Positions 23,869 to 44,850 of a stretch of 64,000 bases of DNA are shown one piece after another; the first letter of the stretch is position 1, and every line of letters starts with the position of its first letter. The stretch lies in NCBI GenBank assembly GCA_963702005.1, contig OY969696.1:1632001-1696000 (forward strand). Reading direction: 5' to 3'. This stretch comes from Candidatus Aminicenantes bacterium. GTDB taxonomy: Bacteria > Acidobacteriota > Aminicenantia > Aminicenantales > JAFGBC01. The translations under genes and the position numbers were made by a program. The notes below the pieces were generated by a model that made no database searches, was not told where the DNA came from, and worked only from the letters and a program-made list of their open reading frames with translations.

Positions 23869-24996
23869 ATGTCCAGAGCGCGTATGGTTGTGTTGATTCT
23901 TGCCATGTTGGCCAAGGGTTTGTCGGCCCAGTTTTTGGTCGACACGCTCACCAAGCTCGGAGACTATGAGTCCCGGCGGACCTCAAGCTATGACCGGACC
24001 GGCTCCAACGGGGACTACCGGCACCTGAAAGCCGGGGAGACCTTAGAACTGTTCGCCGAGGCCGGCCCCGCGGAAATCCGGCACATCTGGATGACCATGG
24101 CCAGCGGCGAAGTCTATCACCTCAAAAAAGTCGTGCTGCGTATGTACTGGGACGGCGAGCCCGAGCCGAGCGTCGAAACGCCCATCGGCGATTTCTTCGG
24201 ACTGGGGCTGGGGACTTACACCGTGTTCCATTCGGCGCTGATCGCGGTGGCGCCGGACAAGGCCCTGAACGCCTACTTCCCGATGCCGTTCGCCCGGCAG
24301 GGCCGCATCACCGTCAGCAACGAGGGGACCCAGGACATCACGGATTTTTACTGGAACATCGACTGGGTCAAGCTTCCTTCGCTCGCTCCGGAGACGGTCT
24401 ATTTTCACGCCCAATACCGCCAGTGCGCGCCGTGCCGGGGCTGGTACAAGGGCAATTTCTACGGAAACGATTTCAGCGAGGCGCGGCGCGACCCGCGCTG
24501 GCTCAATGCGTCGGGAGCGGGAAACTACGTGTTTCTCGAAACCCGGGGGGACGGCCATTTTGTCGGCGTGACGCTTTCGGTCTTCCAGAATCAGTGGGGA
24601 GGCTGGAACGAGGGAGACGAGATGATCTGGATCGACGGCGAGGCCGAGCCGCGGATTCACGGCACCGGCGGCGAGGATTATTTCAACGGCGCCTGGGGCT
24701 TTTCCGCCCTGTATTCGTTCCCCCTGGTCGGGCTGACCGAGTTTCATCAATGGGAACCGGGCTCTCGATTCTCGCACTACCGCTTCCACCTGGAGGCTCC
24801 CGTCCGTTTTCACAAGTCGATCCGGGCGACGATCGAAGACGGGCACGCCAACCTGCGCTCGGACAACCTCTACTCGGTGGCCTACTGGTACCAGAAGGAG
24901 CCCCACGCGGGGTTCCCGGCGCTTCCGCCCGCCGAAGAGCGCATCCCGAAATTCGTGTACACGGGCGGACCCGGCCAAGACAGGAAGATGAAATAG
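23869..24996 (+). CDS. DUF2961 / glycoside hydrolase family 172 protein
   Basis: IRHIWMT, LRMYWDGE..PSVETPIGDFFG, EGDEMIWIDGE, HGTGGEDYFNGAW, YSVAYWYQ. Confidence 0.92.
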   Translation: MSRARMVVLILAMLAKGLSAQFLVDTLTKLGDYESRRTSSYDRTGSNGDYRHLKAGETLELFAEAGPAEIRHIWMTMASGEVYHLKKVVLRMYWDGEPEPSVETPIGDFFGLGLGTYTVFHSALIAVAPDKALNAYFPMPFARQGRITVSNEGTQDITDFYWNIDWVKLPSLAPETVYFHAQYRQCAPCRGWYKGNFYGNDFSEARRDPRWLNASGAGNYVFLETRGDGHFVGVTLSVFQNQWGGWNEGDEMIWIDGEAEPRIHGTGGEDYFNGAWGFSALYSFPLVGLTEFHQWEPGSRFSHYRFHLEAPVRFHKSIRATIEDGHANLRSDNLYSVAYWYQKEPHAGFPALPPAEERIPKFVYTGGPGQDRKMK

Positions 24997-25035
24997 TCGG
25001 TTTTAAAGGAAAGAAATATCTGTCGGGAGGAAGGT

Positions 25036-27006
25036 CTAGTGCCGCGGATCGATTTTCACTTTGGTCGGCGAATCCGGCACAACCAGCAGGGGACCGGGCT
25101 TGCGGACGTTGCCCGCCGCCTGGCCGATGAGATCCAGTTGGAAGTGCTTGTCGGCCGAAGCTTGCGGAATGACGCCGGAAATTGACCAGGTCATCATCAG
25201 CGCGTCGAGATCGACATCGATGCTCATGTCCGCGTAAGCGCCATTCTTGTCAAACCCGAAGAATTTCCGCCACGCTTCGAGATCGAGCCGGAGGATCGTG
25301 CCCGCATCGGGAATCCAGTTCAGTCCGCGCCCCAGCGACTGGGTCTCATCGCGCGTTTCGCCCCAATCTCTCGTGTAGAGGTTGCCGTCCGCGGTGTTGT
25401 CGCCATTGGAGAAATCGATGGCCTTGCCGCAGCGGAAGAAAATGTTGTTCAAGACCTTGTTCCGACGCGTGGTGCCACCCCGCCCGCTCACGATCCGGCT
25501 TTCGATGTTTCGAAATTTGACGGCGGCATCCTGGGTACAGCCGATCAGGTTATGGGCAATGACCGTCTGGTCGCTTCCATCCACGGTGATGCCCCAGCCG
25601 CCGTGGGGCGGCATGTTGTAGGACCCGCCCCCCGCGCCTTCGGTCGCCTTCCAGATGATGTTGTTATCGATCATGTTGGCATCGTGCGAGGCTTCGAGAT
25701 AGATGCCGCCCCGCAGGGTTTCCAGCGCGTCACCCATCACGTTTCCGGTCACGCGCGTATTCGTATTCTCGTAGTCGAGCCAGATGGCCTCGGCATGGAC
25801 GGTGTGGCGGATGACGTTATGGATGAGCAGGCAGTTCTTGGTCAGATGCAGCTTGATCCCGCCTGTTTCCCAGGCCAGCTCCACGTCCTGGTAACCCACC
25901 TGCTCGATCAGATTGGAATCGATGAGAGTGTTCTGCACGGCCGCTCCGGCGATCCCGCAGACGCCCACGTCGTCGATATGGTTGCGGCGGACGATGGCGT
26001 AGCCGATAAGGGCGGGCGGCTCCATGTCCCAGTCCTGGGCGCCAATGTCGAGCGCTACGCCGTTGGCGTGCCGCAGGATACAATCCTCGATGATCCAGTG
26101 ATGGCCCCGGCTCATGGAAACCAGCCCGCGCTGCGGGACCGGGAAGCCGTTGGCCGCGTGCTCGAAGGTGATCCCCTTGACTCGGATGTAACCCAGCTCT
26201 TGCGTCCGGGGCGCGAAGACCTGCTCCTGGATCGCGAGCTCCACCTCGTGCTGAGCGGGATCTGCGTCGCCGGGAAGGCGCACGTGGATCGTGAGCCCGT
26301 CCTGCTCACACCAAAAGGCGCCGTCTTTCCCGCTGAGCTTCTGGTAAAGCTCGACCTGCTCGAGGCGTTGCCCGTCCATGAAAACCATCCCGCGCCGTTT
26401 GAGATGCCGCCACAACTCTTCCGGCTTAGGCATCAGGTAGACGCGGTTATGCATGATGCTGGCCATACCGAAGGGGTTGTAGCCCTGGAAATCGAGATCG
26501 TCCAGGCGGCGACGATAGATCTTCACTTTGGCGCGAGCCGCCGCGGGCAAGTCGAGCTTGAAATCCGTCGAAGGCTCCCAACCGGCCTTGACCGTCCGCG
26601 AGCCCTTGACGATGACGCTCGCCCCGGGCGCCGCCTCGTAACTGATCATCTTGTCAGGGCCGCTGCCGCCGCGCGCCGGATCGATATGCTCGCGATAGAT
26701 GCCCGTCATGATAACCACGCGCTCGCCCGGCTGTAACACCTGAGCCGCTTTGTTAATGGTCAGAAAGGGGAGTTCCTTCGTGCCCGCATTCGAATCCGCG
26801 GCGCGAGGATTCCGGTTATCCACATAATATGTTCCGGCGAACTGAAGCGGCTGCTCCCAGGAAATAAACTCGCGCCCGTCAGGCAACAGAACTCCGGTTC
26901 CGTTTTCTCCACCCGAAAATGAACCGGTCACGAGGCCGATCAGGCACAGAGCCGTGGTGAGCAGTGCCCGCCGGATCAGAGGGCCGGATGAAAGTTCATG
27001 TCTCAT
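25036..27006 (-). CDS. Right-handed beta-helix glycoside hydrolase (GH120 beta-xylosidase-like)
   Basis: PFLTINKAAQVLQPGE.V.I.TGIYRE.I.PARGG, GHHWIIEDC, ETGGIKLH, IWLDY. Confidence 0.75.
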   Translation of the reverse strand: MRHELSSGPLIRRALLTTALCLIGLVTGSFSGGENGTGVLLPDGREFISWEQPLQFAGTYYVDNRNPRAADSNAGTKELPFLTINKAAQVLQPGERVVIMTGIYREHIDPARGGSGPDKMISYEAAPGASVIVKGSRTVKAGWEPSTDFKLDLPAAARAKVKIYRRRLDDLDFQGYNPFGMASIMHNRVYLMPKPEELWRHLKRRGMVFMDGQRLEQVELYQKLSGKDGAFWCEQDGLTIHVRLPGDADPAQHEVELAIQEQVFAPRTQELGYIRVKGITFEHAANGFPVPQRGLVSMSRGHHWIIEDCILRHANGVALDIGAQDWDMEPPALIGYAIVRRNHIDDVGVCGIAGAAVQNTLIDSNLIEQVGYQDVELAWETGGIKLHLTKNCLLIHNVIRHTVHAEAIWLDYENTNTRVTGNVMGDALETLRGGIYLEASHDANMIDNNIIWKATEGAGGGSYNMPPHGGWGITVDGSDQTVIAHNLIGCTQDAAVKFRNIESRIVSGRGGTTRRNKVLNNIFFRCGKAIDFSNGDNTADGNLYTRDWGETRDETQSLGRGLNWIPDAGTILRLDLEAWRKFFGFDKNGAYADMSIDVDLDALMMTWSISGVIPQASADKHFQLDLIGQAAGNVRKPGPLLVVPDSPTKVKIDPRH

Positions 27007-27134
27007 TTTTGCTTCGTCCTTCTCAGTACCATGGATGATAGATCGCGGTTTGTCAGGATGTCAACCGAAGCTCGTAAGACATATAGTATAAGACATATAC
27101 TGACGAGTTTTTTTGCAGCGTCCTTGAAATAAAA

Positions 27135-27218
27135 TGCCCAGGGCGGGACTCGAACCCGCATGGCCTTACGGCCGCGACATTTTAAGTGTCGTGCGTATGC
27201 CTATTCCGCCACCTGGGC
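27135..27218 (-). tRNA. tRNA-Leu (anticodon TAA)
   Basis: Reverse complement GCCCAGGTGGCGGAATAGGCATACGCACGACACTTAAAATGTCGCGGCCGTAAGGCCATGCGGGTTCGAGTCCCGCCCTGGGCA folds into a full cloverleaf with long variable arm; CCA not encoded. Confidence 0.93.
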
Positions 27219-27680
27219 TCTTTTTCTGCTACGATGCGTAGGCCTCAAGCTATGACAATTAGGACATAATATTCTTAAATTTTCCAGACGATTATCATTT
27301 CTATTGCCGTTGATGTGGTCCAATTCCAGCGGCAAATATCCATTTTCGGATAGCACGGCCCAGCCGCATTCCTCACAATGCTTTGGCTTCAAACCGGCGT
27401 TGAACAATCTGTTTTTGAGCTTAAAGCTTTGAACCGAACTGCCTAGGATTAACACGTTTGATAGAGGAATTCGAGGCTTTCCTTTGCCTTTAATACCTCT
27501 GTTCCATCCATGCCCTTTGAAATGTTTGATATTGAGTCCATGTTCCTTTATGTACTTTTTTATCTGTTCGTAATTTCCCCCCGCTCCTTTTAAGTTCAAT
27601 TTCTGGAGAACCTGCCTATAACTCGTAGAAGTTATGACGGCATTCTCCAAGTCACTCAGCTGCCATGACCTCCTTCTCAT
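27201..27680 (-). CDS. HNH endonuclease (Zn-binding)
   Basis: CEECG...LELDHINGNRNDNRLENLRILCPNCHS; AT-rich; last codons (AQVAE*) overlap the tRNA 5' end. Confidence 0.92.
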   Translation of the reverse strand: MRRRSWQLSDLENAVITSTSYRQVLQKLNLKGAGGNYEQIKKYIKEHGLNIKHFKGHGWNRGIKGKGKPRIPLSNVLILGSSVQSFKLKNRLFNAGLKPKHCEECGWAVLSENGYLPLELDHINGNRNDNRLENLRILCPNCHSLRPTHRSRKRAQVAE

Positions 27681-27686
27681 GGCATG

Positions 27687-27715
27687 ATTATATGATATGG
27701 AAGTCGCCAAGACAA
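27687..27715 (-). promoter_or_regulatory. Putative sigma70 promoter giving a leaderless HNH-tRNA transcript
   Basis: Minus strand TTGTCT-17 nt-TATAAT, 6 nt before ATG at 27680; no SD. Confidence 0.55.
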
Positions 27716-27760
27716 TTAATTTATTAACGCGTTTACCCTTTAAGAAAGATATAAGCCGAG

Positions 27761-27810
27761 AATCCCTCGGGGCGTAAGCTCCGTGCCGGTTCGAGCCCGG
27801 CCCCCGGCAC
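27761..27810 (+). pseudogene. 3' half of a tRNA-Leu gene (anticodon loop to acceptor stem); att-like remnant
   Basis: AATCCCT-CGGGGCGTAAGCTCCG (variable arm)-T-GCCGGTTCGAGCCCGGC (T arm)-CCCCGGCAC; no matching 5' half seen nearby. Confidence 0.8.
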
Positions 27811-27845
27811 TCACACTATCTACGGCCGCTGTTCGACGGCCTCCC

Positions 27846-29039
27846 TCAGGACTTGCCGTCCGTCACCCGTTTCCAGACGCGGAGGAAATTTTCCCCCATG
27901 ATCTTCTTGACGTCGGCGTCGCTGTAGCCCCGGCGTTTCAACCCGCGGGTGATCAGCCCGTAATCCTGGGCTCCTCGGAGCCCTTCGGGCGTAGGCGTCC
28001 GCGGGTACATGTCCGCTCCCAGCCCGACATGGTCGATCCCGGCTGTCTTCACGGCGTGATCGATATGATCGAGGATGTCCTCGATCGTCGGCTTCCCCTC
28101 GAGCGGCCAATCCCGGCCCTGGCTGAGGTGCTCGACGGCGATCCGCAAGTCGAGGTCCTCGATCGGAGGAACTCTCTCGAAAATCGGCCGGCTGATCGCC
28201 CGGAGTTCCTCGGCGGCCTTGGCATAGCCGGCGGAAAGATAGGTGAGCTCAAAGACGATGCCGATCACGCCGTCGTTTTTGGCGAGAGCTCGCAGCATCT
28301 CGTCGCTGACGTTCCGGCGGTAGGGATTGACGGCCCTGCATCCGGAATGCGAGAGGATGACGGGATCTCGGCTGACCTCCAAGACGTCGAAGAAGGTCTT
28401 GTCCGAAACGTGGGAGACATCGATGACCATGCCGAGCCTGTTCATCTCCCGGACGACATCCCGGCCCAGGGCGTTGAGCCCGTTCCAACGGGGCTTGTCG
28501 GCGCTGGAATCGGCCCAGCCATGGCTGATGTTATGGGTCAGCGTCATCGAGGTCACTCCGAGTCGCCGGAACTCCACCAGCAGATCGAGGCGGTCCTCGA
28601 TGGCGTGGCCGCCCTCGATGGCCAACGGCATTGCGATTTTTCCCGAGGCGACGATCCTCTCGATATCGGCGCCCGTTCGGGCCAGCTCGACACATCGGGA
28701 ATTTTTTTCGATCGCCCCGGTCATGGCCTTCAGGAGCTCAAAGGCCTGGCGGGCGGCCTTGTCGGGATAAAGATAATTTTGGATGAATAAGGCGACGACT
28801 TGGACATCGACCTGTCCCTCTTGGAGACGGGGAATATCGACCTGCCCGGCGGGCAAGCGCTTCCCGATGTCCAGCCCCTCATAGAGGACCCGGTAGGCCA
28901 GATCGTTGTGGCAGTCCCAAACCAGGGCCTCCCGATGGAGCCTGGAAACGGCGTCCTCGGCCGATTGTGCTCGGGCCGGCTTAGGGCCGATCCCCGCCAA
29001 GGCCAGGGCGGCCAGAAGAGCCGATAGCCGCATGATCAT
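27846..29039 (-). CDS. Membrane dipeptidase (peptidase M19 family), secreted
   Basis: DCHND, AIEGGH, MTLTHN, DVSHVS, SHSG, HIDH..GIDHVGLGAD, KIMGENFLRV; own AAAGGA RBS and signal peptide. Confidence 0.9.
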   Translation of the reverse strand: MIMRLSALLAALALAGIGPKPARAQSAEDAVSRLHREALVWDCHNDLAYRVLYEGLDIGKRLPAGQVDIPRLQEGQVDVQVVALFIQNYLYPDKAARQAFELLKAMTGAIEKNSRCVELARTGADIERIVASGKIAMPLAIEGGHAIEDRLDLLVEFRRLGVTSMTLTHNISHGWADSSADKPRWNGLNALGRDVVREMNRLGMVIDVSHVSDKTFFDVLEVSRDPVILSHSGCRAVNPYRRNVSDEMLRALAKNDGVIGIVFELTYLSAGYAKAAEELRAISRPIFERVPPIEDLDLRIAVEHLSQGRDWPLEGKPTIEDILDHIDHAVKTAGIDHVGLGADMYPRTPTPEGLRGAQDYGLITRGLKRRGYSDADVKKIMGENFLRVWKRVTDGKS

Positions 29040-29052
29040 GCGGGCCGATCCT

Positions 29053-30062
29053 TTAAAGCTTGGAGGCGACCAGGATTCCCAATCCCACCAGGTAGAACAA
29101 GAACATCGCGGCCAACAGCTTGTTCGTCCCGGCCGGAGCATCCTTGAATTCTTTCCAGATGAAGACGCCCCAGAGGGCGCCGACCATGGTGGCGCCCTGG
29201 CCCAATCCATAAGACAGGGCGGGACCGGCCGCGTTCTGGCGATGATGCTGAAGGACATCCCGAGGCTCCAGATGACTCCGCCCAGGATTCCGATCAGGTG
29301 CAAGCGGGGGTTGCCCTTGCTGAAGTAGTCGCGGAACGGCACCGGATCCCCCGAGAGCGGCTTGGCCATCATGATGCTGTTCCAGAGAAAGTTGGAGACC
29401 AGAACTCCGACCGAGAACAGGACGATCGCCGTATAGGGACTCAACTTCCCCGGCTCAAGAGCCCGGCTGGCCGGGTCGATCCTGCCCAAGGCGTTGGCGA
29501 CATAGCTGTAGAAGAATCCCATCAACACGCCGGCGACGACGGAAAGAACGATGCCCTTGAGCGGTGTCTTTTGGGCTTGGGCCGCTCGTTTCTTATAGGC
29601 CAAGGCGTCGAGGATGATGGCGACCAGGACGCCGGCGACGCCCAAGGCCAGCATCGGCACGTTGCCCTCGGGCTTCTTCAGATAGGTCGTGATGACACCC
29701 AGGGCCAGGGCCAGGCCGACGCCAACCGGGAAAGCCACGGCCAAGCCGGCGATATCGATGGCCGCCACCAGGAGGATATTCGACAGGTTGAAAATGACGC
29801 CGCCCAGGAAGGCGGAGCCCAGCCAGGCGCCGTCAGCCTGCCGCAGATCGGCCAGAAAGCCGCGTCCGGCCCCGCCCGTGCTGCCCAGGGTGAAGGCCAG
29901 GACGAGAGACAATAGCAACACGCCGATCGCGTAGTCCCAATAGAAGAGCTGGAACCGCCATTCCTTGCTGGCCAGCTTCTGGGTGTTCGCCCAAGATCCC
30001 CAGCAGAGCATGGTGATGACGCACATCGCAATCGCGACGGGATAGGAAGCGACGATGATCAT
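29053..30062 (-). CDS. GRP/DMT-family sugar transporter, one-base frameshift near 29236-29240
   Basis: MLCWGSWANTQKL, FQLFYWDY, AGLAVAFPVG; the alternate frame resumes NAAGPALSYGLGQGATMVGALWGVFIWKEFK to TAA at 29053. Confidence 0.82.
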
Positions 30063-30160
30063 GCCGTTCTCCTTTGCTTTCCCTGCCGGCCGAGCCCGAT
30101 CCGCCGGCCGCGCCGCGGGAATGTTATATCGCGAGCGTCGAGGCTGTCAAGGCGACGAGT

Positions 30161-32041
30161 TTATCTCCCCCGTCCGGCGTCGATCGCGGCGACGGACAGG
30201 GCCGGTATCGTTACGAGACCTCCGGCCGACCCGTCCCATTTCAATTTCGTCCGCGCAATCCGGTTGGGGCCGGCAAAGCTGTTAATGACGTCGATTTGTC
30301 CCCTGTCTTGGCCGTCGCAAACGACCTCTCCGCCCTTGACAGCGAAGGCGGGGTCGAAGCCGGAAAGATCCAGGTCGAGATCGACGGCTTCATTACGAAG
30401 ATTGACGACAAACAGGCAGAGCAAGGAGTGGTCCTCGGCCGCGCAGGCTGATAGATCGACCAGGACGGGGACATCGGCGGCCACCCGAAGCGGAATCGGG
30501 AGCGAATGCCTCCGATACAGGGCCATGACGTGGAAGCTGGGCGTCCGGTACAGCTCGGCCGCATTCGTCTGAATCGTTCCGCCGCAGAAGCTGTTGGTCA
30601 GGTTGGACCGGCAGGCAAGCGTCACGGCGTCCGAATGCCGATGGAGGACGTTCAGGAACTGGGCCTCGAATAGGGCGCAGCCGAGCGTGTTGAGCTTGCC
30701 CCGCCCCAACCCCCAGTTCCCGGCGTTGATGTTCCATTCCGTGACCCCGATCTTGATCCGGCCGGCTCCGCTCGAGGTCTCGATCCAGCCCTTAATCGTC
30801 GTCAGATCGGAGGCGACGCCGTCGAGGTCGGCCTGGTAGTAATGAGGGCAGACGATGTCCGCGTTCCCGCCGGCGCGATCGATCAGCTCGCGGGTCGGGA
30901 ACGAGGAAAGAACCACGGCGCCGGGGTCGGCCTTCTTGATGGCCCGGGCCACCGCCATGAATTCCCCGGGGTAGTCGGGGCGGTCGATTTCATTTCCGAC
31001 TTGCCAGTATTTAACGGCGTAGGGAAGGGGACGGCCCTGGGACGCTCGTTTCCGGCCCCAATCGGACTCCGGGGGACCGTTGAGATACTCGACCATCTGG
31101 GCCGCGCTCTCGGCTCCGTCGGCCAAGCTGACGCATATGAGGGGCTCGGCCTCGACGGCGCGGCAGAATTGGACGAACTCCTCGACGCCGACGTCATTCG
31201 AGTCCCGTCGTCCCCAGGGAGAGTTCAGGAACGGAGATCGCAAGTCCCGATCGCCGATCGCCGCCTTCCAGCGGTAATGACCGGGATCGACCGCCGATCC
31301 TCCCCAACGGATGATCGGTGGAGCGAGCTCCTTGGTCGTCTCCACGACGTCTTTCCGCCAGCCCTGGATGCTGTCCTCGGGCATCAAGGATAATTTGTCC
31401 AGCCAGAGATGCCCCTCTCCCTTGGCCTCAACCTCGAAGACGGCCCGGTCGGTCGTTCCCCGAGACAGGAATCGGCCTTCGAACTTCTTCCAGCCGGAAC
31501 CGGGGCGGGGAAGGTCGAGGACCGCCAGCGTCATCCAGGATTCATCGGGCGCCAGGACCCTAAGCGCAGTCTTTACCCCCAGGGAGGCGGAATCGCCGCG
31601 GTAGTACCCGCTCAGCCGATAGCCCATTCCCTTGCGGACCGCGATGCGGCTTTGCGTCAGCCGCGCCGGCCGTCCCGTCGAGGAGGACAGCCGAGCGGAT
31701 TGATCTCCGTTGAAGGGCCGTTCCCCGTCGTATGCCCAGTCGTCGCTCCGGTCCCAGTCCCGGTCGCAAAGGTTGAGCTCGCCCCGGAAATAGCACCACT
31801 TCGCGGTGGGAAGGATGCCTTCGAAACCGCGGTCTCCGAGCATTTCCGCCCACATCCCGGGCACGACATCGTCGAGAAGCTCGACGAAGCCTCCGTAGAG
31901 CATCGGGCTGATCCGTCCCGCATGGAGGGGCTCGGATCCGACTTGGATACGGACTCTGGCCGCCGCCTCCGACCGGACGGGCGCGATCCCCAATCCGATG
32001 AAGAGCGCGATCAGAGAAGCCTGTCGTTGTCGTTTGATCAT
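30161..32041 (-). CDS. Alpha-L-arabinofuranosidase (GH51)
   Basis: ISPMLYGGFVE, IRWGGS, GVEEFVQFC, KYWQVGNE (acid/base), VTEWN (nucleophile). Confidence 0.9.
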   Translation of the reverse strand: MIKRQRQASLIALFIGLGIAPVRSEAAARVRIQVGSEPLHAGRISPMLYGGFVELLDDVVPGMWAEMLGDRGFEGILPTAKWCYFRGELNLCDRDWDRSDDWAYDGERPFNGDQSARLSSSTGRPARLTQSRIAVRKGMGYRLSGYYRGDSASLGVKTALRVLAPDESWMTLAVLDLPRPGSGWKKFEGRFLSRGTTDRAVFEVEAKGEGHLWLDKLSLMPEDSIQGWRKDVVETTKELAPPIIRWGGSAVDPGHYRWKAAIGDRDLRSPFLNSPWGRRDSNDVGVEEFVQFCRAVEAEPLICVSLADGAESAAQMVEYLNGPPESDWGRKRASQGRPLPYAVKYWQVGNEIDRPDYPGEFMAVARAIKKADPGAVVLSSFPTRELIDRAGGNADIVCPHYYQADLDGVASDLTTIKGWIETSSGAGRIKIGVTEWNINAGNWGLGRGKLNTLGCALFEAQFLNVLHRHSDAVTLACRSNLTNSFCGGTIQTNAAELYRTPSFHVMALYRRHSLPIPLRVAADVPVLVDLSACAAEDHSLLCLFVVNLRNEAVDLDLDLSGFDPAFAVKGGEVVCDGQDRGQIDVINSFAGPNRIARTKLKWDGSAGGLVTIPALSVAAIDAGRGR

Positions 32042-32255
32042 GAAGCCTCCTTGCCGGTTTCTCCGGTCCGCCATCGAAACGGCGGAATTTTCGGGCGCCG
32101 TAAGCCTGTTATTCGCGGTATCCCTTCTTTTGATATCACGCGATTTCCCGACAAGTCAATCTTGGAGGGTGGACGGACAAGCGCCTTGACCCGTTCGCCG
32201 AGGCTCAGGGTTACCCCTATACAAGCCCGCGCCTGATGGCTGGGGTGTTGAGGGG

Positions 32256-32285
32256 TTGACAGTCTCTTGCTCAAGAACGTAAGAT
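32256..32285 (+). promoter_or_regulatory. Putative sigma70 promoter
   Basis: TTGACA-18 nt-TAAGAT upstream of 32363 gene. Confidence 0.4.
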
Positions 32286-32362
32286 GTCTCCCTCGATCCT
32301 TCCCATCGGACGGAAATGGAACCTGAACGCTCTGGCCGCGGGGGACGGAGGTGAGTCGGAAC

Positions 32363-34975
32363 ATGAGCGGGAAAGCGAAACCGACCGGGAAGCCCGGGCT
32401 GAGGGCGCTGGCTCTGGCCGTGGCGGCGATCTTGTTCTGGGTCGGAGCCGGCCTCGCCGCGACGCGTCTGCCCTCCTATTACGCCCATCCGACCGTGGAA
32501 GACGCCCACGGCGTTATCGCCCCCTGGTACCGGGGTTTGAACGGCCAGTTGGACGAACGCGTCCTGATTGCGGTCAACGTCCTGAAACGATACCCCTGGG
32601 TGGACAAGCCCAAGGCCGTCCTGGCCGCACCCGACCTGATCTACAATTCCCACTGGAGCATCGCGCCCGACGGAACCATCCGGATTCCGCCCACCAACGA
32701 CTGGATGTGCGGGGATCTCTGCCAGCGGGCCTGGAGCATCATCAAGGGATTGACCGCTTACTATCAGTACAGCGGCGATCCGATCGCTTTCATCTATATC
32801 CCGCTCACGGTCGATTACATCCTCGATTACGGGCTGACCGACGAGCGGGCCGATTGGCCGCTGTTCCCGATCAGCACGCCGACGCTGGGCAAGGCCTACG
32901 GGAAGTGCGACCCTCGAGGGCGCAACCAGCTCGACCTGTGCGCCATCATCGGCATCGAGGTCCTGCGAGCCCATAAGCTGACCGGGAATCCGCGCTACTT
33001 GACGATGGCCAGGCACTGGGGGGATGTCTTCGCCGCCCACGCCCAATTCGCCGAGGCGGATCTCTCTCCCTGGAATCGCTACGTCGATCCCTCGGTCGTC
33101 GGATGGTCCGATGTCCTGACCGGGACGACCTCGATCATCGTCGACTTCCTGGAGGAGCTGATCGCCTGCGGCGGACGGGGAAGGGACGGCCTATGGGTCA
33201 AGGCCCGGGACGCCGGCCGCCGCTTTCTCAACGAGAAGATGTTTCCGGCCTGGTGGCTGAACGACACTTGGGGCCGCACCTACTGGGACTGGGACAACCC
33301 GATGATGTGCGGAATGGTCTCCATGTGCGCCGATCACTTCATGACCTACCCCCGGGTCTATCCCGGCTGGCGGAACGATCTTCGCAACATGCTCTCCCTT
33401 CTCTGGAATCGAAACGGAGCCGACCCGGCCTCGCGGGGCGACGCCTACAGCGGGGCCTGGGCGTTCCCGGAATCCTCGGTCTGCTGCGGAACGTCGCTCT
33501 CCTACAACCAATACACCGCGGGCCCGACCCTGATCCGCTACGGCGTCCTGGCCGACAGCGAATGGGCGCGGGAGATCGGCCGCCGGATGATGATCATGGC
33601 CAGCTACGACAGCTTACCCAACGGAGTCGTCAAGGACGGGCTGCTGGGCGAGCAGGTCGCCACGGGAGATTGGTCGAACCTCGCACACCCCTGGCCGTTA
33701 TGCCGGACCCTGGATGCCATCGCCTGGCTGCCGCGGGAGTTCGGGCCGAACCGGGAAAACCATATTATGCGCTCCGCTTCGGTCGTCAACGAAGTCCTCT
33801 ACGAAAAAGGCCGCATCGCCTACTCGACCTTCGACGCTCCTCAGGGCGGTCGCGATGTCCTGCGGCTGGCCTTCCGCCCCGCCTCGATACGCGCCGACGG
33901 CGTCCGGCTGCGGGAGCGGGTCGACCTCGAAGGCGATGGCTACATCGTGGATCCTCTTCCCAACGGGGACTGCCTGGTCACGATCCGGCACGACGGCCGG
34001 ACCGGACTTGTGGTGGAGGGCGACGATCCTCAGGATGTCGCCGATGATGCGTTCTTCGCCGTGACCGGCTCCTGGATGAGCGTCGAAGATGCGGCGGCAT
34101 GGGGAGGCTCCTATCGCGCGGCCGACCAGGCCGACGCCGCCCTGACCTTCGTGTTCAACGGCAACCGGGTGTGCCTGACGGGCATCGTCGGACCCGAGGG
34201 CGGCTGGGCGGATGCCTACGTCGACGGCGTCAAGGAGCCCACCGTGGTCGAATGCTGGAATCCCACCGTCCGCCGCCGCCAGCCGATCTTCGTCAAGAAG
34301 GGACTGGAGAACGGATCCCATGAGCTGAAGATCGTTCTGCGGGGAGCGGGGAATCCTCTGGCGCGGGGGATGCGGATCATGGTCGACTCGGCCCAGGTCT
34401 CGGCGGCGAGCGGAGAGGCGGGAACGGGTTCGGGCGGAGGCCCCCGGGAAGCCCAACGGCTCATCTTCGGCACGACCGAACGGCGGGACTACGTCGACGG
34501 CGGCGGCAACGCTTGGCGGCCGGGCACAGAGTTCGTGACCCGTTCCGGTAACGGAGCGGACACCGTCGCCCGCTGCTGGTGGAACTGCCGCCGGAGCATG
34601 TACATCGGCGGGACCAAGGATGAAGAGATCTACCGCTACGGGGTCCATGCGCCCGAATTCTGGGTGAACCTCACCGTGGCGCCCGGCACCTACTTAGTGC
34701 GGCTGCACTGGGCCGACACGCCCGAGACGCCCTGGATGGAACGAGAGGGCGAATGGGAATCCGTCTCCCGCCCGACGACCGTCGCGATCAACGGCGTTAC
34801 CGTCGTCGAGAACCTGAATGTCCGGAAAGAGGTCGGGACGTTCCGCGCCTACGTCCGGGATTTCCCCGGCATCGTCCCCCAGAACGGTGTCATCGAGCTC
34901 CGCTTCACATCCACGCCCGGCCACGAGGCGATGATCCAGGCCGTCGAGGTCCTTCCGGCCGGCGCCGAACGCTGA
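32363..34975 (+). CDS. Large secreted protein: putative helical-barrel glycosidase-like domain + carbohydrate-binding module + malectin-like domain
   Basis: Signal peptide; W/Y/D-rich helical N-half; LTFVFNG..GWADAYVDG..HELKIV module; IGGTKDEEIYRYG..YLVRLHWA..AMIQAVEV malectin-like tail. Confidence 0.7.
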   Translation: MSGKAKPTGKPGLRALALAVAAILFWVGAGLAATRLPSYYAHPTVEDAHGVIAPWYRGLNGQLDERVLIAVNVLKRYPWVDKPKAVLAAPDLIYNSHWSIAPDGTIRIPPTNDWMCGDLCQRAWSIIKGLTAYYQYSGDPIAFIYIPLTVDYILDYGLTDERADWPLFPISTPTLGKAYGKCDPRGRNQLDLCAIIGIEVLRAHKLTGNPRYLTMARHWGDVFAAHAQFAEADLSPWNRYVDPSVVGWSDVLTGTTSIIVDFLEELIACGGRGRDGLWVKARDAGRRFLNEKMFPAWWLNDTWGRTYWDWDNPMMCGMVSMCADHFMTYPRVYPGWRNDLRNMLSLLWNRNGADPASRGDAYSGAWAFPESSVCCGTSLSYNQYTAGPTLIRYGVLADSEWAREIGRRMMIMASYDSLPNGVVKDGLLGEQVATGDWSNLAHPWPLCRTLDAIAWLPREFGPNRENHIMRSASVVNEVLYEKGRIAYSTFDAPQGGRDVLRLAFRPASIRADGVRLRERVDLEGDGYIVDPLPNGDCLVTIRHDGRTGLVVEGDDPQDVADDAFFAVTGSWMSVEDAAAWGGSYRAADQADAALTFVFNGNRVCLTGIVGPEGGWADAYVDGVKEPTVVECWNPTVRRRQPIFVKKGLENGSHELKIVLRGAGNPLARGMRIMVDSAQVSAASGEAGTGSGGGPREAQRLIFGTTERRDYVDGGGNAWRPGTEFVTRSGNGADTVARCWWNCRRSMYIGGTKDEEIYRYGVHAPEFWVNLTVAPGTYLVRLHWADTPETPWMEREGEWESVSRPTTVAINGVTVVENLNVRKEVGTFRAYVRDFPGIVPQNGVIELRFTSTPGHEAMIQAVEVLPAGAER

Positions 34976-36468: not shown

Positions 36469-38886
36469 TCACCGAGAGCGGGCCCGGTTTTTCTTCCAGC
36501 GGAGGCGCTGGGCTATCCCCATTAAAATGTAGAGCGGGCCGTATAAGCCGGCCGCGACGGCCGTGGCCCCGATGTTGCCGCCCTGGAGGAGCGAAACCCA
36601 CAGCCCGAACTGCTGGTCGCTGATGAGGTAGGTCCAGGTCGAGGATGGCCCGCGCAGGCCCATTCGGTCCAGGTCGAGCCGGTCCGGATCGGCGGGAAGC
36701 GATCGGAATGATCTCAGGATTCCGGTTTCGATCTTGGGCTCCAGCTTGACGAATTCCTCGTTGGCGATCCTTTGGAATTCGGCGATCGGAGACCGTCCCC
36801 CCACGCTCTCCAGGTGGATGCCCTCGCGGACATAGGCCAGGACGGCCAAGTGCTCCATCCAGGCGCGGTCGATCTCGCGGAGGGCGATCCGCCGCTCGAT
36901 CTCGGCCCAGGCGTCCGGAGTCATCCGTGAGCGATGGCCAGCCCCGATCCGGCGGACTTTGGCCTCCAGCGGATCCGGCAATCCGTCACCGCCCAGGATC
37001 TCCTCGCGCCAGCCCTGGATGATTTGGCGCTGCTTCTCAATAAGGTAGGCGTATTTCCAGAGGGTTTTGCGGATTTCGAAGTTTTGACCCTCGATGATCC
37101 GCTGGCCCCGAGCGATCTCGCGGGCGACCAGGGGATTTTCAAGCGGGCCATTCCGCCGTAGCGAGCGAAGGCTTTTGGGCAGGAGGTTCCGGAGACCGTA
37201 CTTCTCGACGAGCGGATCTTCGAGGCTGACGAAAAAGCGGGACGAACCGGGATCGCCTTGGCGCCCCGCCCGCCCCCGGAGCTGCCGGTCGATCCGCAGG
37301 TTTTCGTGCCGGTTCGTGCCGATGACGTAAAGGCCGCCCCTGCCGACGACCTTGTCCCGCTCCTGCTCTTTGTCTCCGCCGAGTTTAATGTCAGTCCCCC
37401 GGCCGGCCATGTTCGTCGAAATGGTCACGGCGCCGGGGCGGCCCGCCTGGGCGATGATCTCGGCCTCGAGCTCGTCGTTCTTGGCGTTGAGGACCCGGCA
37501 GTCGATGTCTTTCCCCTGCAGGGCGGCCGCCAGCTCCTCGGACTCCTTGATGCTGGCCGTGCCGACCAGGACCGGCCGGCCGACGGCATGCAGGCATCCG
37601 ATCTCCTCGATCAGGGCCTCGGCCTTGGCCGCCTTGTGCGTGAAGACCGCGTCCGGCAGATCCTTCCGGATGCAGGGACGGTGCGGGGGAATGACGACGG
37701 TCCTCAGCCCGTAGAACTCGTGGATCTCGCCGGCGGCGCTTTGCGCGGTTGCGGTCATTCCGCCGACCTTGGGGTAGAGGCGGATGAAGTGCTGAAGGGT
37801 GATCGAGCCCAGGATGGATCCGCCAGCGCCCGGCCCGAGCCGTTCCTTGGCCTCGACCGCGGCCTGGAGGCCGTCGGGCCAGTGGCGGTCTTCGACGACG
37901 CGGCCCGTGAATTCGTCGACGATCTCGGCCTTTCCGTCGCGGACGATATAGTCCACGTCGCGCCGCAGGAGATACTCGGCATGGAGGGCCTGATGAACGC
38001 CGGTCAGGATATCGATGGCCCCGGGCGCGTGGAGGTCCAGACCGCCCAGCCTGCCCTCGATTCTCCCCAAACCCTGGTCGGTCAGGACAAGGTTGCGCTC
38101 CCCTTCGTCCGTCTCGAAGTCGAGGCCGGACCGGAGCCCTTTGACGACCTCGGCCAATCCGACCGGGACGGCCGTCTCCGCCTCCAGCCGGCCGGCGATG
38201 ACGAGCGGGACGCGGGCCTCGTCGATGAGGATGGAATCGGCTTCGTCGACGACCGCGCAATGAAACGGCCTTTGGACGAGGTCGGCCCGGGCGTAGCAGA
38301 GATGATCGCGGAGGTAATCGAAGCCGGCCTCCTTGGCCGTCGCGTAGGTGATGTCCGAAGCGTAAGCCCTTTTCCGGTCCGTCTGAGGCATCCCTTCCTG
38401 TACGCAGCCGACGCTCAGGCCAAGGAATTCGTAGATGGGCCCCATCCAGGCGGCATCCCGGCGGGCCAGGTAATCGTTGAAGGTCAGGATGTGGACCCCT
38501 CGTCCGGTCAGAGCGTTTAGGGCGCCCGGAAAGACCGCGGCCAGCGTTTTACCCTCGCCGGTGTTCATCTCGACGACGCGGCCTTGATGAAGGGCGATCC
38601 CGGCCATGACCTGCTCGTCGAACGGCTTGAGCCCGATTCTCCGCCAGGCCGCTTCCCGGACGAGGCCGAACGCCTCGACCAAGAGAACGTCCGCAGCCTC
38701 GCCTCGGCAGGCCCGCTCCCTCAACCGCGCCGCTCTTTCTTGAAGCTCGCCGTCCGCCGAGCGGCCGAAGTCGAGGCGGCCGATCGCCGCCAGCGTTTTT
38801 CGATAGCCGGCCAGATCATATTGAATGGGAATGCCGCGCGTCCTGTTCCAGAAATCCTTAATCCGGGTCTTGGCGGGTAAAATCAT
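36469..38886 (-). CDS. secA2: Accessory protein translocase ATPase SecA2
   Basis: EMNTGEGKT (Walker A), VDEADSILIDEARVPL, STNMAGRGTDI, QLRGRAGRQGDPG; short (805 aa), no C-terminal Cys Zn motif; SD GGAGAGGAG 5 nt before ATG. Confidence 0.88.
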   Translation of the reverse strand: MILPAKTRIKDFWNRTRGIPIQYDLAGYRKTLAAIGRLDFGRSADGELQERAARLRERACRGEAADVLLVEAFGLVREAAWRRIGLKPFDEQVMAGIALHQGRVVEMNTGEGKTLAAVFPGALNALTGRGVHILTFNDYLARRDAAWMGPIYEFLGLSVGCVQEGMPQTDRKRAYASDITYATAKEAGFDYLRDHLCYARADLVQRPFHCAVVDEADSILIDEARVPLVIAGRLEAETAVPVGLAEVVKGLRSGLDFETDEGERNLVLTDQGLGRIEGRLGGLDLHAPGAIDILTGVHQALHAEYLLRRDVDYIVRDGKAEIVDEFTGRVVEDRHWPDGLQAAVEAKERLGPGAGGSILGSITLQHFIRLYPKVGGMTATAQSAAGEIHEFYGLRTVVIPPHRPCIRKDLPDAVFTHKAAKAEALIEEIGCLHAVGRPVLVGTASIKESEELAAALQGKDIDCRVLNAKNDELEAEIIAQAGRPGAVTISTNMAGRGTDIKLGGDKEQERDKVVGRGGLYVIGTNRHENLRIDRQLRGRAGRQGDPGSSRFFVSLEDPLVEKYGLRNLLPKSLRSLRRNGPLENPLVAREIARGQRIIEGQNFEIRKTLWKYAYLIEKQRQIIQGWREEILGGDGLPDPLEAKVRRIGAGHRSRMTPDAWAEIERRIALREIDRAWMEHLAVLAYVREGIHLESVGGRSPIAEFQRIANEEFVKLEPKIETGILRSFRSLPADPDRLDLDRMGLRGPSSTWTYLISDQQFGLWVSLLQGGNIGATAVAAGLYGPLYILMGIAQRLRWKKNRARSR

Positions 38887-38891
38887 CTTGA

Positions 38892-38960
38892 CTCCTCTCC
38901 GGTTCATAAACCCGATGACGATTCGAACAGACTTCAGGGGAAATAGTTAGAGGAGAGGAG
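38892..38960 (-). promoter_or_regulatory. Anti-SD/SD pairing between leader-ORF 3' end and secA2 RBS
   Basis: mRNA CUCCUCUCC (38960-38952) is the exact complement of SD GGAGAGGAG (38900-38892). Confidence 0.65.
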
Positions 38961-41476: not shown

Positions 41477-43195
41477 TCAGTCGCTGAGTAGCTTGAGAAC
41501 GGTTTTTCTCTTTTCTCGAAAGGCGGGGACGTTGATATCGTATTCGGTGAAGCTGTAGACGACCTGCCGCGCCAGCTCTTTCGCCTCCTCGGGGAGCTTT
41601 TCCGCCAGCCGGCAGAGGAGCTCGTGGTCGACGATCCCGTCCCGCATCGTCTCGAGCCGGATCGAGGGGAGGACCCGGCCCTGGGCCGGATAGACGATCC
41701 AGGAGTCGCCGGCCGGTAGGACCAGCCCGGATTCGGTCTGGATCCGGGTCGTCTCGTAGAAGGGGTCGTCCGTCCACCAGTTGAATCCCCAATGAAGGTA
41801 GCCGGGTGAGCCGTAGCGGAAATTGATCCAGTGGAGGAGGCGGGCCTTGATCAGGGGCTGCTCGATGAAGCGGTTCGCGTATTCCCCCTGGGGAAATACG
41901 CACGTGTAGAACCAGACTTCACCGCCCTTGGCCGCGGTCTCGGCATAGAAGGCGTTGTCGGTGTCGAAGAAGTTGAGCTGGGGCACCCAGATGTCGAGCA
42001 GGTCGGCCAGGTTCCGGGTGTGGCAGGCTTCGATGATTTTCAAGCCGGGGGCGTATTGCTTGACGAAGCGGGCGATCTCGACATAGGAAGCGAAATTCTC
42101 CTCGATCGGCTCGTCGGCCAGATGCTGCATGTAGATGCCCGTCCAGCCTTTCTCGTTGAGGTGGGCGACCAGGGCCGGCAGGAACTGAGAATAAAAACGG
42201 ACGGCCCGTTCGTCCGAGATCGGATATCTCCGAAATTCGACCGCGCCGGCGCCCACGACCTCGGGGACCGAGACGACAAACGGCGTGAGCCAGGTGCCCT
42301 CCCTTCCTCCGATATGGCCGCCCTCGATCCGGCCGATGACGCCCTCCTCGATGAAGATCCCGACCATCCGGTCGAACCGGGCGAAATCGAAGCCGTAGCG
42401 GCCGTTTTCCAGGGTATAAGTCGCGAGCTCGAGCGGGGAAATGAGCGCGACGTTTTGGCGGTACTCGGCCATGGCCCGGGCCAGCGCCCGGATGAGCTCC
42501 CAGTAGCGTTCCGAGTAAGGCTCGACCGGCCGGCCCCCGTTCATCAGCTTCAGCTTTTCAGGGTCCGTGGCGAACCAGTTGGTGACCCACAGCCGGGTCC
42601 GGTCGATGACGGGCGGGTAGACGCGGACCGCGCACTCCCGGGCCGTTCGGAACCTCCGGCCTTCCAGGGTGCCGGTCAGGGCGATCGTTCCTTTATAGAG
42701 ACCGGGCGCCGCGTCCTTGGGCACCGGCACGCTGACCCAGATCGGCTGAGTGGTCAGGGGCGGAAGCTCGGCCGGGGGCGCGGGCAGGATCGGGTCGGGA
42801 TAGAATCCGGACGGCGAGCAAAGCCTGTCCCGGCCCGACTCGGCGATCGTCCGGCCCATCCTGATATAGCCGACATAGCCGATCCAGGCCGTGCCGAGCC
42901 GGCCCTGTTCCGACTTGAATTCGGTCGCCTCGGCCCGAAGGTCCCTGAGGGCTCCGGACGAGCGGAGCGCGAATTGGAAGCTGGCGTGTTCGCCGCGGGC
43001 GACGTCGGCCTCGGCCGCGGAGCGCGGGAAAAAAGCGGTCTCACGGAAGATCTTTTCGAGGGGATCGACCGCATCGAAGACGAGACGGCCCGGCAGGTTT
43101 TCGCTCCGGACCCGCAGCTGGGAACATCCCGAAAGCAATATGAAGGCGGCAGCGAGCAAACCGGCCGGGATTGATAACGAACGATGAGCTTTCAT
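41477..43195 (-). CDS. DUF4091 / GH123-like glycoside hydrolase lipoprotein
   Basis: Lipobox LSGC; QPIWVSVPVPKDAAPGLYKG; ADEP; VWFYTC; GYLHWGFN; SIRLETMRDGIVDHE. Confidence 0.82.
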   Translation of the reverse strand: MKAHRSLSIPAGLLAAAFILLSGCSQLRVRSENLPGRLVFDAVDPLEKIFRETAFFPRSAAEADVARGEHASFQFALRSSGALRDLRAEATEFKSEQGRLGTAWIGYVGYIRMGRTIAESGRDRLCSPSGFYPDPILPAPPAELPPLTTQPIWVSVPVPKDAAPGLYKGTIALTGTLEGRRFRTARECAVRVYPPVIDRTRLWVTNWFATDPEKLKLMNGGRPVEPYSERYWELIRALARAMAEYRQNVALISPLELATYTLENGRYGFDFARFDRMVGIFIEEGVIGRIEGGHIGGREGTWLTPFVVSVPEVVGAGAVEFRRYPISDERAVRFYSQFLPALVAHLNEKGWTGIYMQHLADEPIEENFASYVEIARFVKQYAPGLKIIEACHTRNLADLLDIWVPQLNFFDTDNAFYAETAAKGGEVWFYTCVFPQGEYANRFIEQPLIKARLLHWINFRYGSPGYLHWGFNWWTDDPFYETTRIQTESGLVLPAGDSWIVYPAQGRVLPSIRLETMRDGIVDHELLCRLAEKLPEEAKELARQVVYSFTEYDINVPAFREKRKTVLKLLSD

Positions 43196-43203
43196 GCGAA
43201 TCC

Positions 43204-44850
43204 TCACCCGCCCAGGATGGAAAGATCGGCGACGGGCAGGAACTTGGGCGGCCGGCGGGCTTTGACGGCCTGCTCGAAGGCGTAGGCGATTGCGATCAGG
43301 GTCGGCTCGCTCCAAGCCTTGCCGAAAAAGGACAGGCCGACCGGAAGCCCGAAGACGAACCCGGCCGGGACCGTGATGTGGGGATAACCCGCGACGGCGG
43401 GGGGCGTCGAACAGCCGCCCCCTACGAAGTGATCGCCGTTGACGAGGTCGGTCGTCCAGGCCGGGCCTCCGGTCGGGGCCACCAGCGCGTCGAGCCGATG
43501 CTTGTCCATGAGGGCGTCGATCCCTTCCTTCCGGGTGAGGCGATGGTTCTTGGCCAGGGCGTCCAGGTAGGCTTTGTCCGTCAAGGGGCCCTTGGCCTCG
43601 GCCTGGAGGAAGAGCTCCTGACCGAAGTAGGGCATTTCCTTGTCGCGGAGCCTCTCGTTGAATGCGATGATCTCCTTGAGGCTATGGACCGGCGCGGACG
43701 GATCGAGCCGGGCCAGGTAGGCGTTGAGGTCGGCCTTGAATTCGTAAAGGAGCACCTCGAACTCCGAATCGTCCACTCGCTTTTTCTTGTCGAAATCGGC
43801 CGGGTCGATGAGGACGGCGCCGAGCTTCTTGAGGTCTTCGAGCCGAGCTTCCATGATTTTATCAACCATGTCATGGAACTTGAAGAAGCCGCGGACGACG
43901 CCGATCCGGGCCCCCTTGAGGCCGTTCGGGTCCAGGGCCTTCGTGAAGTCCGGGGAAAGGGGGGCGCGGGCGTCCCGGGTCGCGGGGTCGTTGGGGTCGG
44001 GGCCCGCCAACGCCAACAACAGGGCCGCCGCGTCGGCCACCGTCCGGGCCATCGGGCCGGCCGTGTCCTGGCTGTGGGCGATCGGGACGACGCCGGACCG
44101 GCTGACGAGTCCGAGCGTGGGCTTGATCCCGACGATCCCGTTGGTCGCCGAGGGGCAGACGATCGAGCCGTCCGTCTCGGTCCCGACCGCGGCCGCGCAG
44201 AGGCTGGCCGCGGCGGCGGCGCCCGAGCCGGAGCTCGAGCCGCAGGGATTCCGGTCCAGGGCGTAAGGGTTTTTGGTCTGGCCGCCCCGCCCGCTCCAAC
44301 CGCTCGTCGATCGGGAGGACCGGAAGTTGGCCCACTCGCTCAAGTTCGTCTTCCCCAGGAGGACGGCCCCGGCCTCGCGAAGTCTCCGGACCAGGAAGGC
44401 GTCCTCGGGCGGCACCGACCCTACCAGGGCGAGCGAACCGGCCGTCGTCTGCATCAGGTCGCGGGTGGCGATGTTGTCCTTGATCAGGACCGGGATGCCG
44501 TGAAGAGGGCCGCGCGGACCCTTGGCCTTCCGTTCGGCGTCCAGGGCGTCTGCGATCGTCCGCGCTTCGGGATTGACCTCGATGACCGAGTTGAGGCCGG
44601 GTCCCTTCTTGTCGACCTCCTCGATCCGGGCGAGGTACAGGTCGGTCAGGGCGCGGGCCGTATACCGTCCCGAGCCCAGACCGGCTTGGAGGTCGGCGAT
44701 GGTCGCCTCCTCGAGTTCGAATGGTCGGGCCGGGGCAGACCCGGGCGGGGGAGGGGCCGAAGGGGATTCCCCGGACCGGCAGGCCGTGTTTCCGGCGGCG
44801 GCCAAGGCGCTCCCCGCCAAACCGTAATGCAGGAATTGTCTTCGTTTCAT
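43204..44850 (-). CDS. Amidase (amidase signature family), Tat-exported
   Basis: MKRRQFL Tat motif; IKDNI, GKTNLSEWANF, GSSSGS, GTETDGSIVCPS. Confidence 0.93.
   Translation of the reverse strand: MKRRQFLHYGLAGSALAAAGNTACRSGESPSAPPPPGSAPARPFELEEATIADLQAGLGSGRYTARALTDLYLARIEEVDKKGPGLNSVIEVNPEARTIADALDAERKAKGPRGPLHGIPVLIKDNIATRDLMQTTAGSLALVGSVPPEDAFLVRRLREAGAVLLGKTNLSEWANFRSSRSTSGWSGRGGQTKNPYALDRNPCGSSSGSGAAAAASLCAAAVGTETDGSIVCPSATNGIVGIKPTLGLVSRSGVVPIAHSQDTAGPMARTVADAAALLLALAGPDPNDPATRDARAPLSPDFTKALDPNGLKGARIGVVRGFFKFHDMVDKIMEARLEDLKKLGAVLIDPADFDKKKRVDDSEFEVLLYEFKADLNAYLARLDPSAPVHSLKEIIAFNERLRDKEMPYFGQELFLQAEAKGPLTDKAYLDALAKNHRLTRKEGIDALMDKHRLDALVAPTGGPAWTTDLVNGDHFVGGGCSTPPAVAGYPHITVPAGFVFGLPVGLSFFGKAWSEPTLIAIAYAFEQAVKARRPPKFLPVADLSILGG

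Follow-up and report, generated by a model that had tools for sequence, protein, structure and literature searches.

The 64-kb stretch of DNA analyzed here (the window) carries an AT-rich cassette in which an HNH nuclease gene is followed directly by a complete tRNA-Leu(TAA) gene. Beside the cassette, on the opposite strand, lies the 3' half of a second Leu tRNA gene. We consider it probable (roughly 0.6) that the cassette encodes a free-standing homing endonuclease, which would bind Leu genes at the D arm and cut them close to the anticodon loop while bringing along a substitute tRNA, and that a deletion reaching A37 removed the rest of the resident Leu gene. The observations that speak for this mechanism are a fixed gene order, an overlap between the two genes, a paired D-arm-like motif in leaders of the family, purifying selection, and broken Leu genes beside several copies of the cassette.

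An AT-rich segment carries an HNH gene and a complete tRNA-Leu(TAA) gene

The segment from 27060 to 27760 has a GC content of 43.1%, the lowest of the window, compared with a window mean of 62.9% (700-nt windows; SD, 3.7%). From the cassette back to the start of the window, the GC content stays near 0.6. The original prediction described an AT-rich segment of ~700 bp with an HNH nuclease and a complete tRNA-Leu(TAA) that has a CGACA/TGTCG anticodon stem, and the composition together with ARAGORN, Rfam, and Pfam matches bears out this description. The tRNA-Leu(TAA) gene (27135 to 27218, minus strand; Rfam, 58 bits) is the only tRNA that ARAGORN finds in the window. UUA codons are present in host genes (35 of 1862 Leu codons), so a tRNA with the UAA anticodon is needed.

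The HNH gene (27201 to 27680, minus strand) encodes 159 aa, with a helix-turn-helix (HTH)-like N-terminal domain, a linker, and a C-terminal zinc-binding HNH domain. Its open reading frame (ORF) spans 27201 to 27710, and the start of its relatives corresponds to the ATG at 27680. The last 18 nt of the gene overlap the 5' end of the tRNA, with the HNH stop codon inside the Leu D arm. The protein matches Pfam HNH and HNH_3 (HNH_3, E = 4.5e-8), phrog_10822 (E = 6.7e-42), and PADLOC HEase (E = 1.3e-21), and the catalytic and zinc residues are intact (invariant H122 and N134; cysteines C102, C105, C139, and C142). In the predicted structure (pLDDT, 85), the N-terminal domain is made up of three helices, and the HNH domain is of the zinc type. 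Foldseek gave no match to this model at an E value of 0.001; the best structural match, a weak one, was to an HNH domain (Z, 5.4; rmsd, 3.5; 77 aligned), and the HTH rows had Z scores of 4 or less.

The HNH gene is a stand-alone ORF with its own predicted promoter and does not lie inside an intron or intein. A group I intron in tRNA-Leu was rejected: no Rfam intron family was found between 26500 and 28500 (E values up to 1), and no Leu 5' half that could serve as a 5' exon was found on the plus strand of the window. Membership in ZorE (23.6 bits versus a curated cutoff of 600) and in IscB (OMEGA; 15.3 bits versus a curated cutoff of 175) was also rejected, with only the HNH core matching in each case.

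To the left, the limit of the foreign DNA is the promoter of a neighboring host beta-helix gene (27035 to 27064, minus strand), where no Leu 5' half is present. This host-type gene has 119 relatives at 78 to 94% identity among the matches listed. The proposed assignment of the left gene to GH120 was not confirmed; it matches only beta-helix families. Between this promoter and the tRNA lies an AT-rich trailer (27066 to 27134, minus strand) that contains a direct repeat of 11 nt and could form a weak hairpin (z, -0.56); only ~15 nt of it are shared with L001, an independent Aminicenantes genome introduced below. The repeat units (27075 and 27089) fall within the hairpin directly behind the tRNA (27071 to 27107), which could be a terminator or a binding site. 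To the left and to the right of the cassette, the flanking sequences of the window and of L001 are different. None of the 47 ORFs of the 64-kb window matched an integrase, recombinase, transposase, or phage family, in agreement with the expectation that the window holds no integrase.

Other features of the neighborhood were observed. A sugar/ureide permease-like ORF (27846 to 30062, minus strand) reads in frame into an M19 dipeptidase through a frameshift near 29,200. The proper end of the permease is in another frame, which would fit a sequencing indel or a pseudogene. A SecA-family ATPase of 812 aa (36469 to 38907, minus strand) lies among accessory genes and is probably a second SecA paralogue. 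Carbohydrate-active genes (DUF2961, beta-helix, arabinofuranosidase-like, malectin-domain, and GH123) are clustered around the cassette at 23869 to 34975 and 41477 to 43315.

The cassette adjoins the 3' half of a second Leu gene

As predicted, a tRNA 3' half that starts in the anticodon loop lies on the strand opposite the cassette. It occupies 27761 to 27809 (plus strand), runs from A37 to the discriminator A, and has a host-like GC content. It keeps A37-A38, the stem strand TCCCT, a paired variable arm, the T arm, the acceptor 3' strand, and the discriminator A, so that 2 of the 7 bases of the anticodon loop are left while the rest of the 3' half is intact and its arms still pair. Scored as a fragment in general models, the remnant stays low (Rfam tRNA clan, 13.9 bits, E = 1.3; Leu HMM, E = 0.11). 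Over 29 nt, it is 79% complementary to the 3' end of the intact carried tRNA, in inverted orientation, and a short CCGAG/CTCGG inverted repeat marks the junction between the AT-rich leader and the remnant (27756 to 27770). Both the remnant and the carried tRNA are Leu genes.

Because just two loop bases survive, the anticodon of the remnant cannot be read. We take A37-A38 to be compatible with a UAA or a CAA anticodon. The claim that E. coli leuZ has an AGGGA/TCCCT arm proved correct, and the identity of the remnant stem with that of leuZ favors a UAA anticodon. A blastn search of the remnant against plasmids and phages returned T-arm matches only, which did not reveal the anticodon, and apart from the intact gene, no Leu 5' half was found on either strand of the window. 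At a canonical tRNA attachment (att) site, the 3' piece is a direct repeat of a reconstituted gene and keeps the whole 7-nt loop. A canonical site was rejected here: the 3' piece is not a direct repeat of a reconstituted gene within the window, and 2 of the 7 loop bases remain.

HNH-tRNA-Leu(TAA) cassettes form a large chromosomal family

We found 5693 relatives of the HNH protein at an E value of 1e-5, and a genome scan confirmed 115 loci, the best 80 of which were analyzed. By record title, these best 80 of 115 are mostly Patescibacteria, with 6 Elusimicrobia, 8 loci titled Gammaproteobacteria, and 1 Aminicenantes (L001, 80%). L001 comes from an independent Aminicenantes genome and has the same cassette at 73% nucleotide identity. 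Leu(TAA) lies directly behind the HNH gene on the same strand in 78 of the 80 (best 80 of 115), at -102 to +36 nt from the stop codon, and the two genes overlap in 44 (best 80 of 115). The linkage of HNH homologs to tRNA-Leu, for which the original prediction proposed a survey, is thus strongly borne out. Two loci are exceptions: Leu(TAA) is cut by a run of N in L069 and is upstream in L076. The latter (9857 to 10460; Phe-Gly-Leu-HNH) is the only one of the best 80 of 115 with Leu(TAA) upstream of the HNH gene and none behind it.

Upstream of the cassette, a Cys gene was found in 48 of the best 80 of 115 loci and a Gly gene in 4 more, which is the order of E. coli glyW-cysT-leuZ. The GC content of the HNH gene is below that of its flanks in 79 of 80 (best 80 of 115). 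All 80 loci (best 80 of 115) have intact HNH and zinc motifs, but this count is biased, because the scan itself used those motifs. The tails of 54 of 120 relatives read into a tRNA; the pattern used was written from those tails, and this number is descriptive only. Several relatives (P0121, P0030, P0123, and others) match in two or three separate stretches. These are apparently tandem units or N-terminal domains in repeated copies, and such proteins could recognize tRNA motifs that are longer or of another kind.

The window groups with L001 and ten metagenomic proteins in a single 12-row clade (SH-aLRT, 99) of a quick, unrooted tree. This clade sits among mostly Patescibacteria rows, and Elusimicrobia fall into two groups. 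From this tree and the GC content, we infer the direction of transfer. The HNH proteins of the Gammaproteobacteria-titled loci (L011, L016, L025, L054, L055, L059, L061, and L070) fall among Patescibacteria, and their labels may be wrong; L025 and L011 are syntenic with a Magasanikbacteria contig.

A D-arm-like motif pair straddles the -35 box of the HNH promoter

A sigma70-type promoter (TTGTCT-17 nt-TATAAT; 27687 to 27715, minus strand) with 10 of 12 matches lies directly before the ATG, in a region conserved in L001. The HNH-tRNA transcript is therefore probably leaderless, and the tRNA apparently depends on the HNH promoter. Two D-arm-like motifs straddle the -35 box of this promoter. The left copy (27729 to 27740, minus strand; 11.6 bits) is a putative operator and may also be all that is left of the 5' part of a Leu gene into which the element had inserted. 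The right, inverted copy in the promoter spacer (27696 to 27707, plus strand) is degenerate (0.1 bits) and was recognized by its position.

With a matrix built from tRNA D arms alone, the left copy (at about -60) was found in 45 of 80 leaders (shuffle mean, 0.5; maximum, 4; wrong strand, 1) and the inverted copy, at about -28 and reaching 8 bits, in 46 of 80 (shuffle mean, 0.4; maximum, 3; wrong strand, 0), both among the best 80 of 115 loci. The pair occurred in 39 of 81 leaders, compared with 9 occurrences elsewhere in 1.13 Mb. The window and L001 are both below the threshold for the paired motif, and covariation of left and right copies within loci was not significant (P = 0.36).

The homing endonuclease I-TevI binds a target-like operator that overlaps its own promoter (PMC2988022). 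By analogy with I-TevI, the motif pair can be read as a putative operator and therefore as a pointer to the target of the nuclease. At the level of the family, a target-like site of this type overlaps the nuclease promoter; in the window, the right copy is degenerate. The leader motif thus makes the D arm, and not the anticodon stem, the likely binding site. The D-arm motif is common to all Leu isoacceptors.

Broken Leu genes and filled and empty alleles occur in relatives

Clear same-strand Leu 5' fragments precede the HNH gene in L003, L005, L007, L037, and L052, where they end 46 to 52 nt before the ATG and score 32 to 46 in local alignment, compared with shuffle maxima of 22 to 26. Alignment of the whole 5' fragment beats shuffles in only 21 of 80 leaders (best 80 of 115), clearly so in these five. 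A same-strand 5' fragment is the usual scar of the family, and an inverted 3' half was seen only in the subclade of the window. In L030, the carried tRNA is followed after 18 nt by another Leu 3' half, as would be expected if the HNH gene and a whole tRNA had inserted into a resident gene; Rfam did not recognize this L030 3' half as a tRNA. Duplicated tRNA 3' ends that resemble ordinary att scars were also observed downstream of the cassette in L041 (~130 nt behind Leu(TAA)) and L022 (11693 to 11731).

The N-terminal extension of the relative P0003 (HNH identity, 75%) differs from the antisense of the remnant by 3 base changes in 15 codons; of 98 intact Leu genes, none would need fewer than 8. 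The P0003 frame is open where an intact anticodon loop would give a stop codon, so this copy is broken at about the same place as that of the window. A second protein search with P0003 found no further tRNA-antisense extension among the proteins compared. In L001, the last 14 nt of the remnant occur in the same orientation 310 nt upstream. This match was reached in 2 of 1,000 shuffles, yet 1 other of 75 real tiles also reached 14 nt, and as a counterpart of the remnant it is only suggestive. In the region from 1826 to 2062 of L001, an extended -10-like box precedes what may be a host Leu gene that has collapsed, and an ORF fragment of 38 codons, without an NCBIfam match, runs into the HNH leader. 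That a host tRNA promoter lies before the L001 remnant is a guess that a scan for promoters did not bear out.

Phage relatives (250 records; ~40% identity) were sampled in five regions picked by hand from spread lists. Four of the five lie in tRNA clusters, and L083 is without a tRNA. Phage EcSzw-2 has the first 11 nt of an Sf15-type Leu(TAG) gene, then the HNH gene, and then another Leu(TAG) allele; this tRNA is the same allele as in BPSELC-1 and JLBYU32 and hence is no replacement relative to those two. In LCK69, the HNH gene stands in place of a CCA-anticodon tRNA that is present in both of two empty alleles, and the tRNA 3' end is left. Presence and absence at homologous loci were seen for these two phage relatives only. 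L089 (661 to 734) and L090 (Pakpunavirus) have an unannotated CCA-anticodon tRNA-like gene (Rfam, 28 bits) that is missing where the HNH gene is present.

The unit is maintained by selection and changes in place

Between the window and L001, the HNH gene has a dN of 0.13 and a pS of 0.87, and the carried tRNA has 1 difference in 84 nt while the HNH synonymous sites are saturated. Both genes are therefore maintained by purifying selection. The arms of the remnant still pair although the synonymous sites of the gene next to it are saturated, which suggests that loss of the resident gene was recent or repeated. Syntenic clades inherit the element vertically, namely, Elusimicrobia and L002/L011/L025, and this leaves room for domestication. 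L011 and L025 are syntenic yet have different Leu(TAA) alleles. In L002 (9246 to 14900), compared with L025 (8035 to 12229) and L011, the cassette is inverted between the same two gene blocks. The allele change and the inversion indicate that the unit changes in place, a precedent for the inverted layout of the window.

The AGGGA/TCCCT stem was found in none of the 79 linked Leu(TAA) genes (best 80 of 115 loci), which may be a lineage default; the bases before the loop are CA in 65 of the 79 and the canonical GA in 12 (best 80 of 115 loci). Linked D arms score modestly lower than those of other Leu genes (10.3 versus 13.2 bits; P = 0.018 for sequences that are not independent), but the D arm of the carried tRNA scores like that of E. 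coli leuZ (10.7 versus 11.0 bits). Two earlier proposals thus stood in part. That the carried copy is diverged fits the missing AGGGA/TCCCT stem, and this copy may be immune to the nuclease, though its D arm scores like that of leuZ. That a resident Leu gene was broken and replaced fits the linkage in 78 of 80 loci (best 80 of 115) and the recurrence of broken Leu genes, but the motif indicates the D arm and not the anticodon stem that had been suggested.

A replacement tRNA model and its alternatives

In the mechanism that we favor, a minimal free-standing homing element of ~0.65 kb would consist of a promoter with its operator, the HNH gene, and a complete tRNA-Leu(TAA). The HTH domain would bind the Leu D-arm motif, and the HNH domain would cut ~10 nt further on, near the anticodon loop; repair would then copy the element in or delete the target. 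The cell would survive because the element transcribes its own Leu(UAA) tRNA, and binding at the motif pair would repress the element's promoter. An ancestor of this Aminicenantes-like host probably acquired the cassette from Patescibacteria, beside the resident Leu gene and facing away from it, and the resident gene would then have lost its promoter and its 5' half up to A37. More tentatively, such cassettes may be integrase-free chromosomal elements whose nuclease destroys the resident UUA-decoding gene and whose tRNA, under the element's own autorepressed promoter, is the sole replacement. The host could then not lose an element that is widespread in Patescibacteria and would have crossed into Elusimicrobia and Aminicenantes, where it would have rewritten tRNA-Leu; the target of such an element could be deduced from its putative operator.

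The remnant might instead be an ordinary att scar, left where an island or prophage had entered the anticodon loop; the integrase and the other end would be more than 27 kb away or decayed, and the HNH-tRNA pair would be passive cargo at the island end, possibly with tRNA-dependent integration. A 3' half that starts in the anticodon loop is a textbook scar, a short inverted repeat lies on the junction, and the window covers 64 kb out of the 4.31 Mb of its contig. Cores that are short and do not reconstruct the tRNA are also known (PMC10865867). We nevertheless think this unlikely, given that none of the 47 window ORFs belongs to an integrase or phage family, 2 of 7 loop bases are left though the remainder is intact, the left neighbor is a host-type gene with GC near 0.6 to the window start, and P0003 has the same junction at 75% HNH identity. 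An assembly artifact, in which a Patescibacteria fragment was joined to the genome through tRNA similarity, would account for the sharp GC step, and the nearby frameshift suggests some sequence error, but this explanation is hardly credible for a 4.31-Mb contig when the cassette recurs, at 73% nucleotide identity, in a second Aminicenantes genome of independent origin and the subfamily forms one clade of 12 rows in the unrooted tree (SH-aLRT, 99).

Other explanations need little or no homing. The cassette could have arrived by chance transfer and made the resident Leu gene redundant, which was then lost through ordinary deletions without a nuclease. The nuclease activity is a predicted one, the leftovers differ among the window, P0003, and L001, and tRNA loci are unstable anyway, as the differing flanks of the window and L001 illustrate. 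Strong purifying selection on the HNH gene, a remnant that is still paired despite saturated synonymous sites (suggesting recent or repeated events), and breaks at about the same loop position in the window and P0003 make this neutral course quite improbable in our view. A domesticated regulator, that is, a vertically kept repressor of its own HNH-tRNA transcript that tunes the UUA-reading tRNA with little or no homing, would fit the vertical inheritance in Elusimicrobia and in L002/L011/L025, the conserved motif pair, the apparent dependence of the tRNA on the HNH promoter, and the lack of clear immunity of the carried tRNA. We consider it very unlikely: all of the 80 loci (best 80 of 115, in a scan that itself relied on these motifs) retain HNH and zinc motifs, the HNH gene is present at some phage loci and absent from their counterparts, the Leu(TAA) alleles of the syntenic loci L011 and L025 differ, and the L002 cassette is inverted.

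Relation to known systems and significance

As far as the window shows, the cassette is not a member of the integrase-based systems. By analogy, the proposed homing mechanism would act as SegB does and would in addition supply a replacement, as happens in tRNA-dependent lysogeny and with fungal mobile ORFs. T4 SegB and T5 F-TflI, -II, and -IV are described as free-standing homing endonucleases in tRNA clusters; SegB recognizes a conserved tRNA motif, spreads with flanking tRNA genes, and excludes those of the recipient (PMC2330249). The cassette resembles SegB as a free-standing nuclease gene in a tRNA cluster that would spread together with a tRNA. In that account, however, SegB is a phage-borne GIY-YIG enzyme that reads the T arm and cuts many tRNAs (PMC2330249), whereas the cassette encodes an HTH-HNH protein in bacterial chromosomes, with one isoacceptor, a D-arm-like motif, and an overlap with the tRNA. 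With I-TevI, as described in PMC2988022, it shares a target-like putative operator over the nuclease promoter and modular binding and cutting domains. I-TevI is intron encoded and has a single operator; the cassette has an inverted pair, and its promoter would also drive the tRNA.

In tRNA-dependent lysogeny, the host loses a tRNA gene to an element that brings a whole tRNA to replace it (PMC10865867), and in both respects the cassette would be similar. The lysogeny described there is reversible and involves a tyrosine integrase and a prophage, and neither tyrosine integrase nor prophage genes, which it needs, were found among the 47 window ORFs. Fungal mitochondrial mobile ORFs (Allomyces atp6, Glomus) combine an endonuclease with a substitute gene end and leave the native piece behind (PMC3630166). 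As described, they concern protein genes, C-terminal pieces, and LAGLIDADG or GIY-YIG nucleases in mitochondria, whereas the cassette carries a whole tRNA in bacteria. Membership among these gene-end-replacing ORFs was rejected: the cassette has an HNH gene and a tRNA and no LAGLIDADG or GIY-YIG ORF with an in-frame replacement protein end, though it would work alike.

Pope is said to have reported HNH genes in cluster M phages in 2014. HNH genes are common beside tRNA genes in mycobacterial tRNA arrays and cluster M phages, where they have been proposed to shape tRNA repertoires; the passages of that source concern association only, with no fixed isoacceptor, operator, or remnant (PMC5966550). 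In the literature searched, which included few subscription journals, we found no description of chromosomal HNH genes that form a family tied to Leu(TAA) and have an operator resembling the D arm.

Homing endonucleases that target tRNA genes have been characterized in phages. Here, a large chromosomal family is tied to one isoacceptor, and its putative target is written in its promoter. If the proposed mechanism is true, essential tRNA genes would be replaced across phyla without an integrase, the cassette could be used to trace the exchange of genes between Patescibacteria and other bacteria, and its nuclease would be a very compact modular enzyme.
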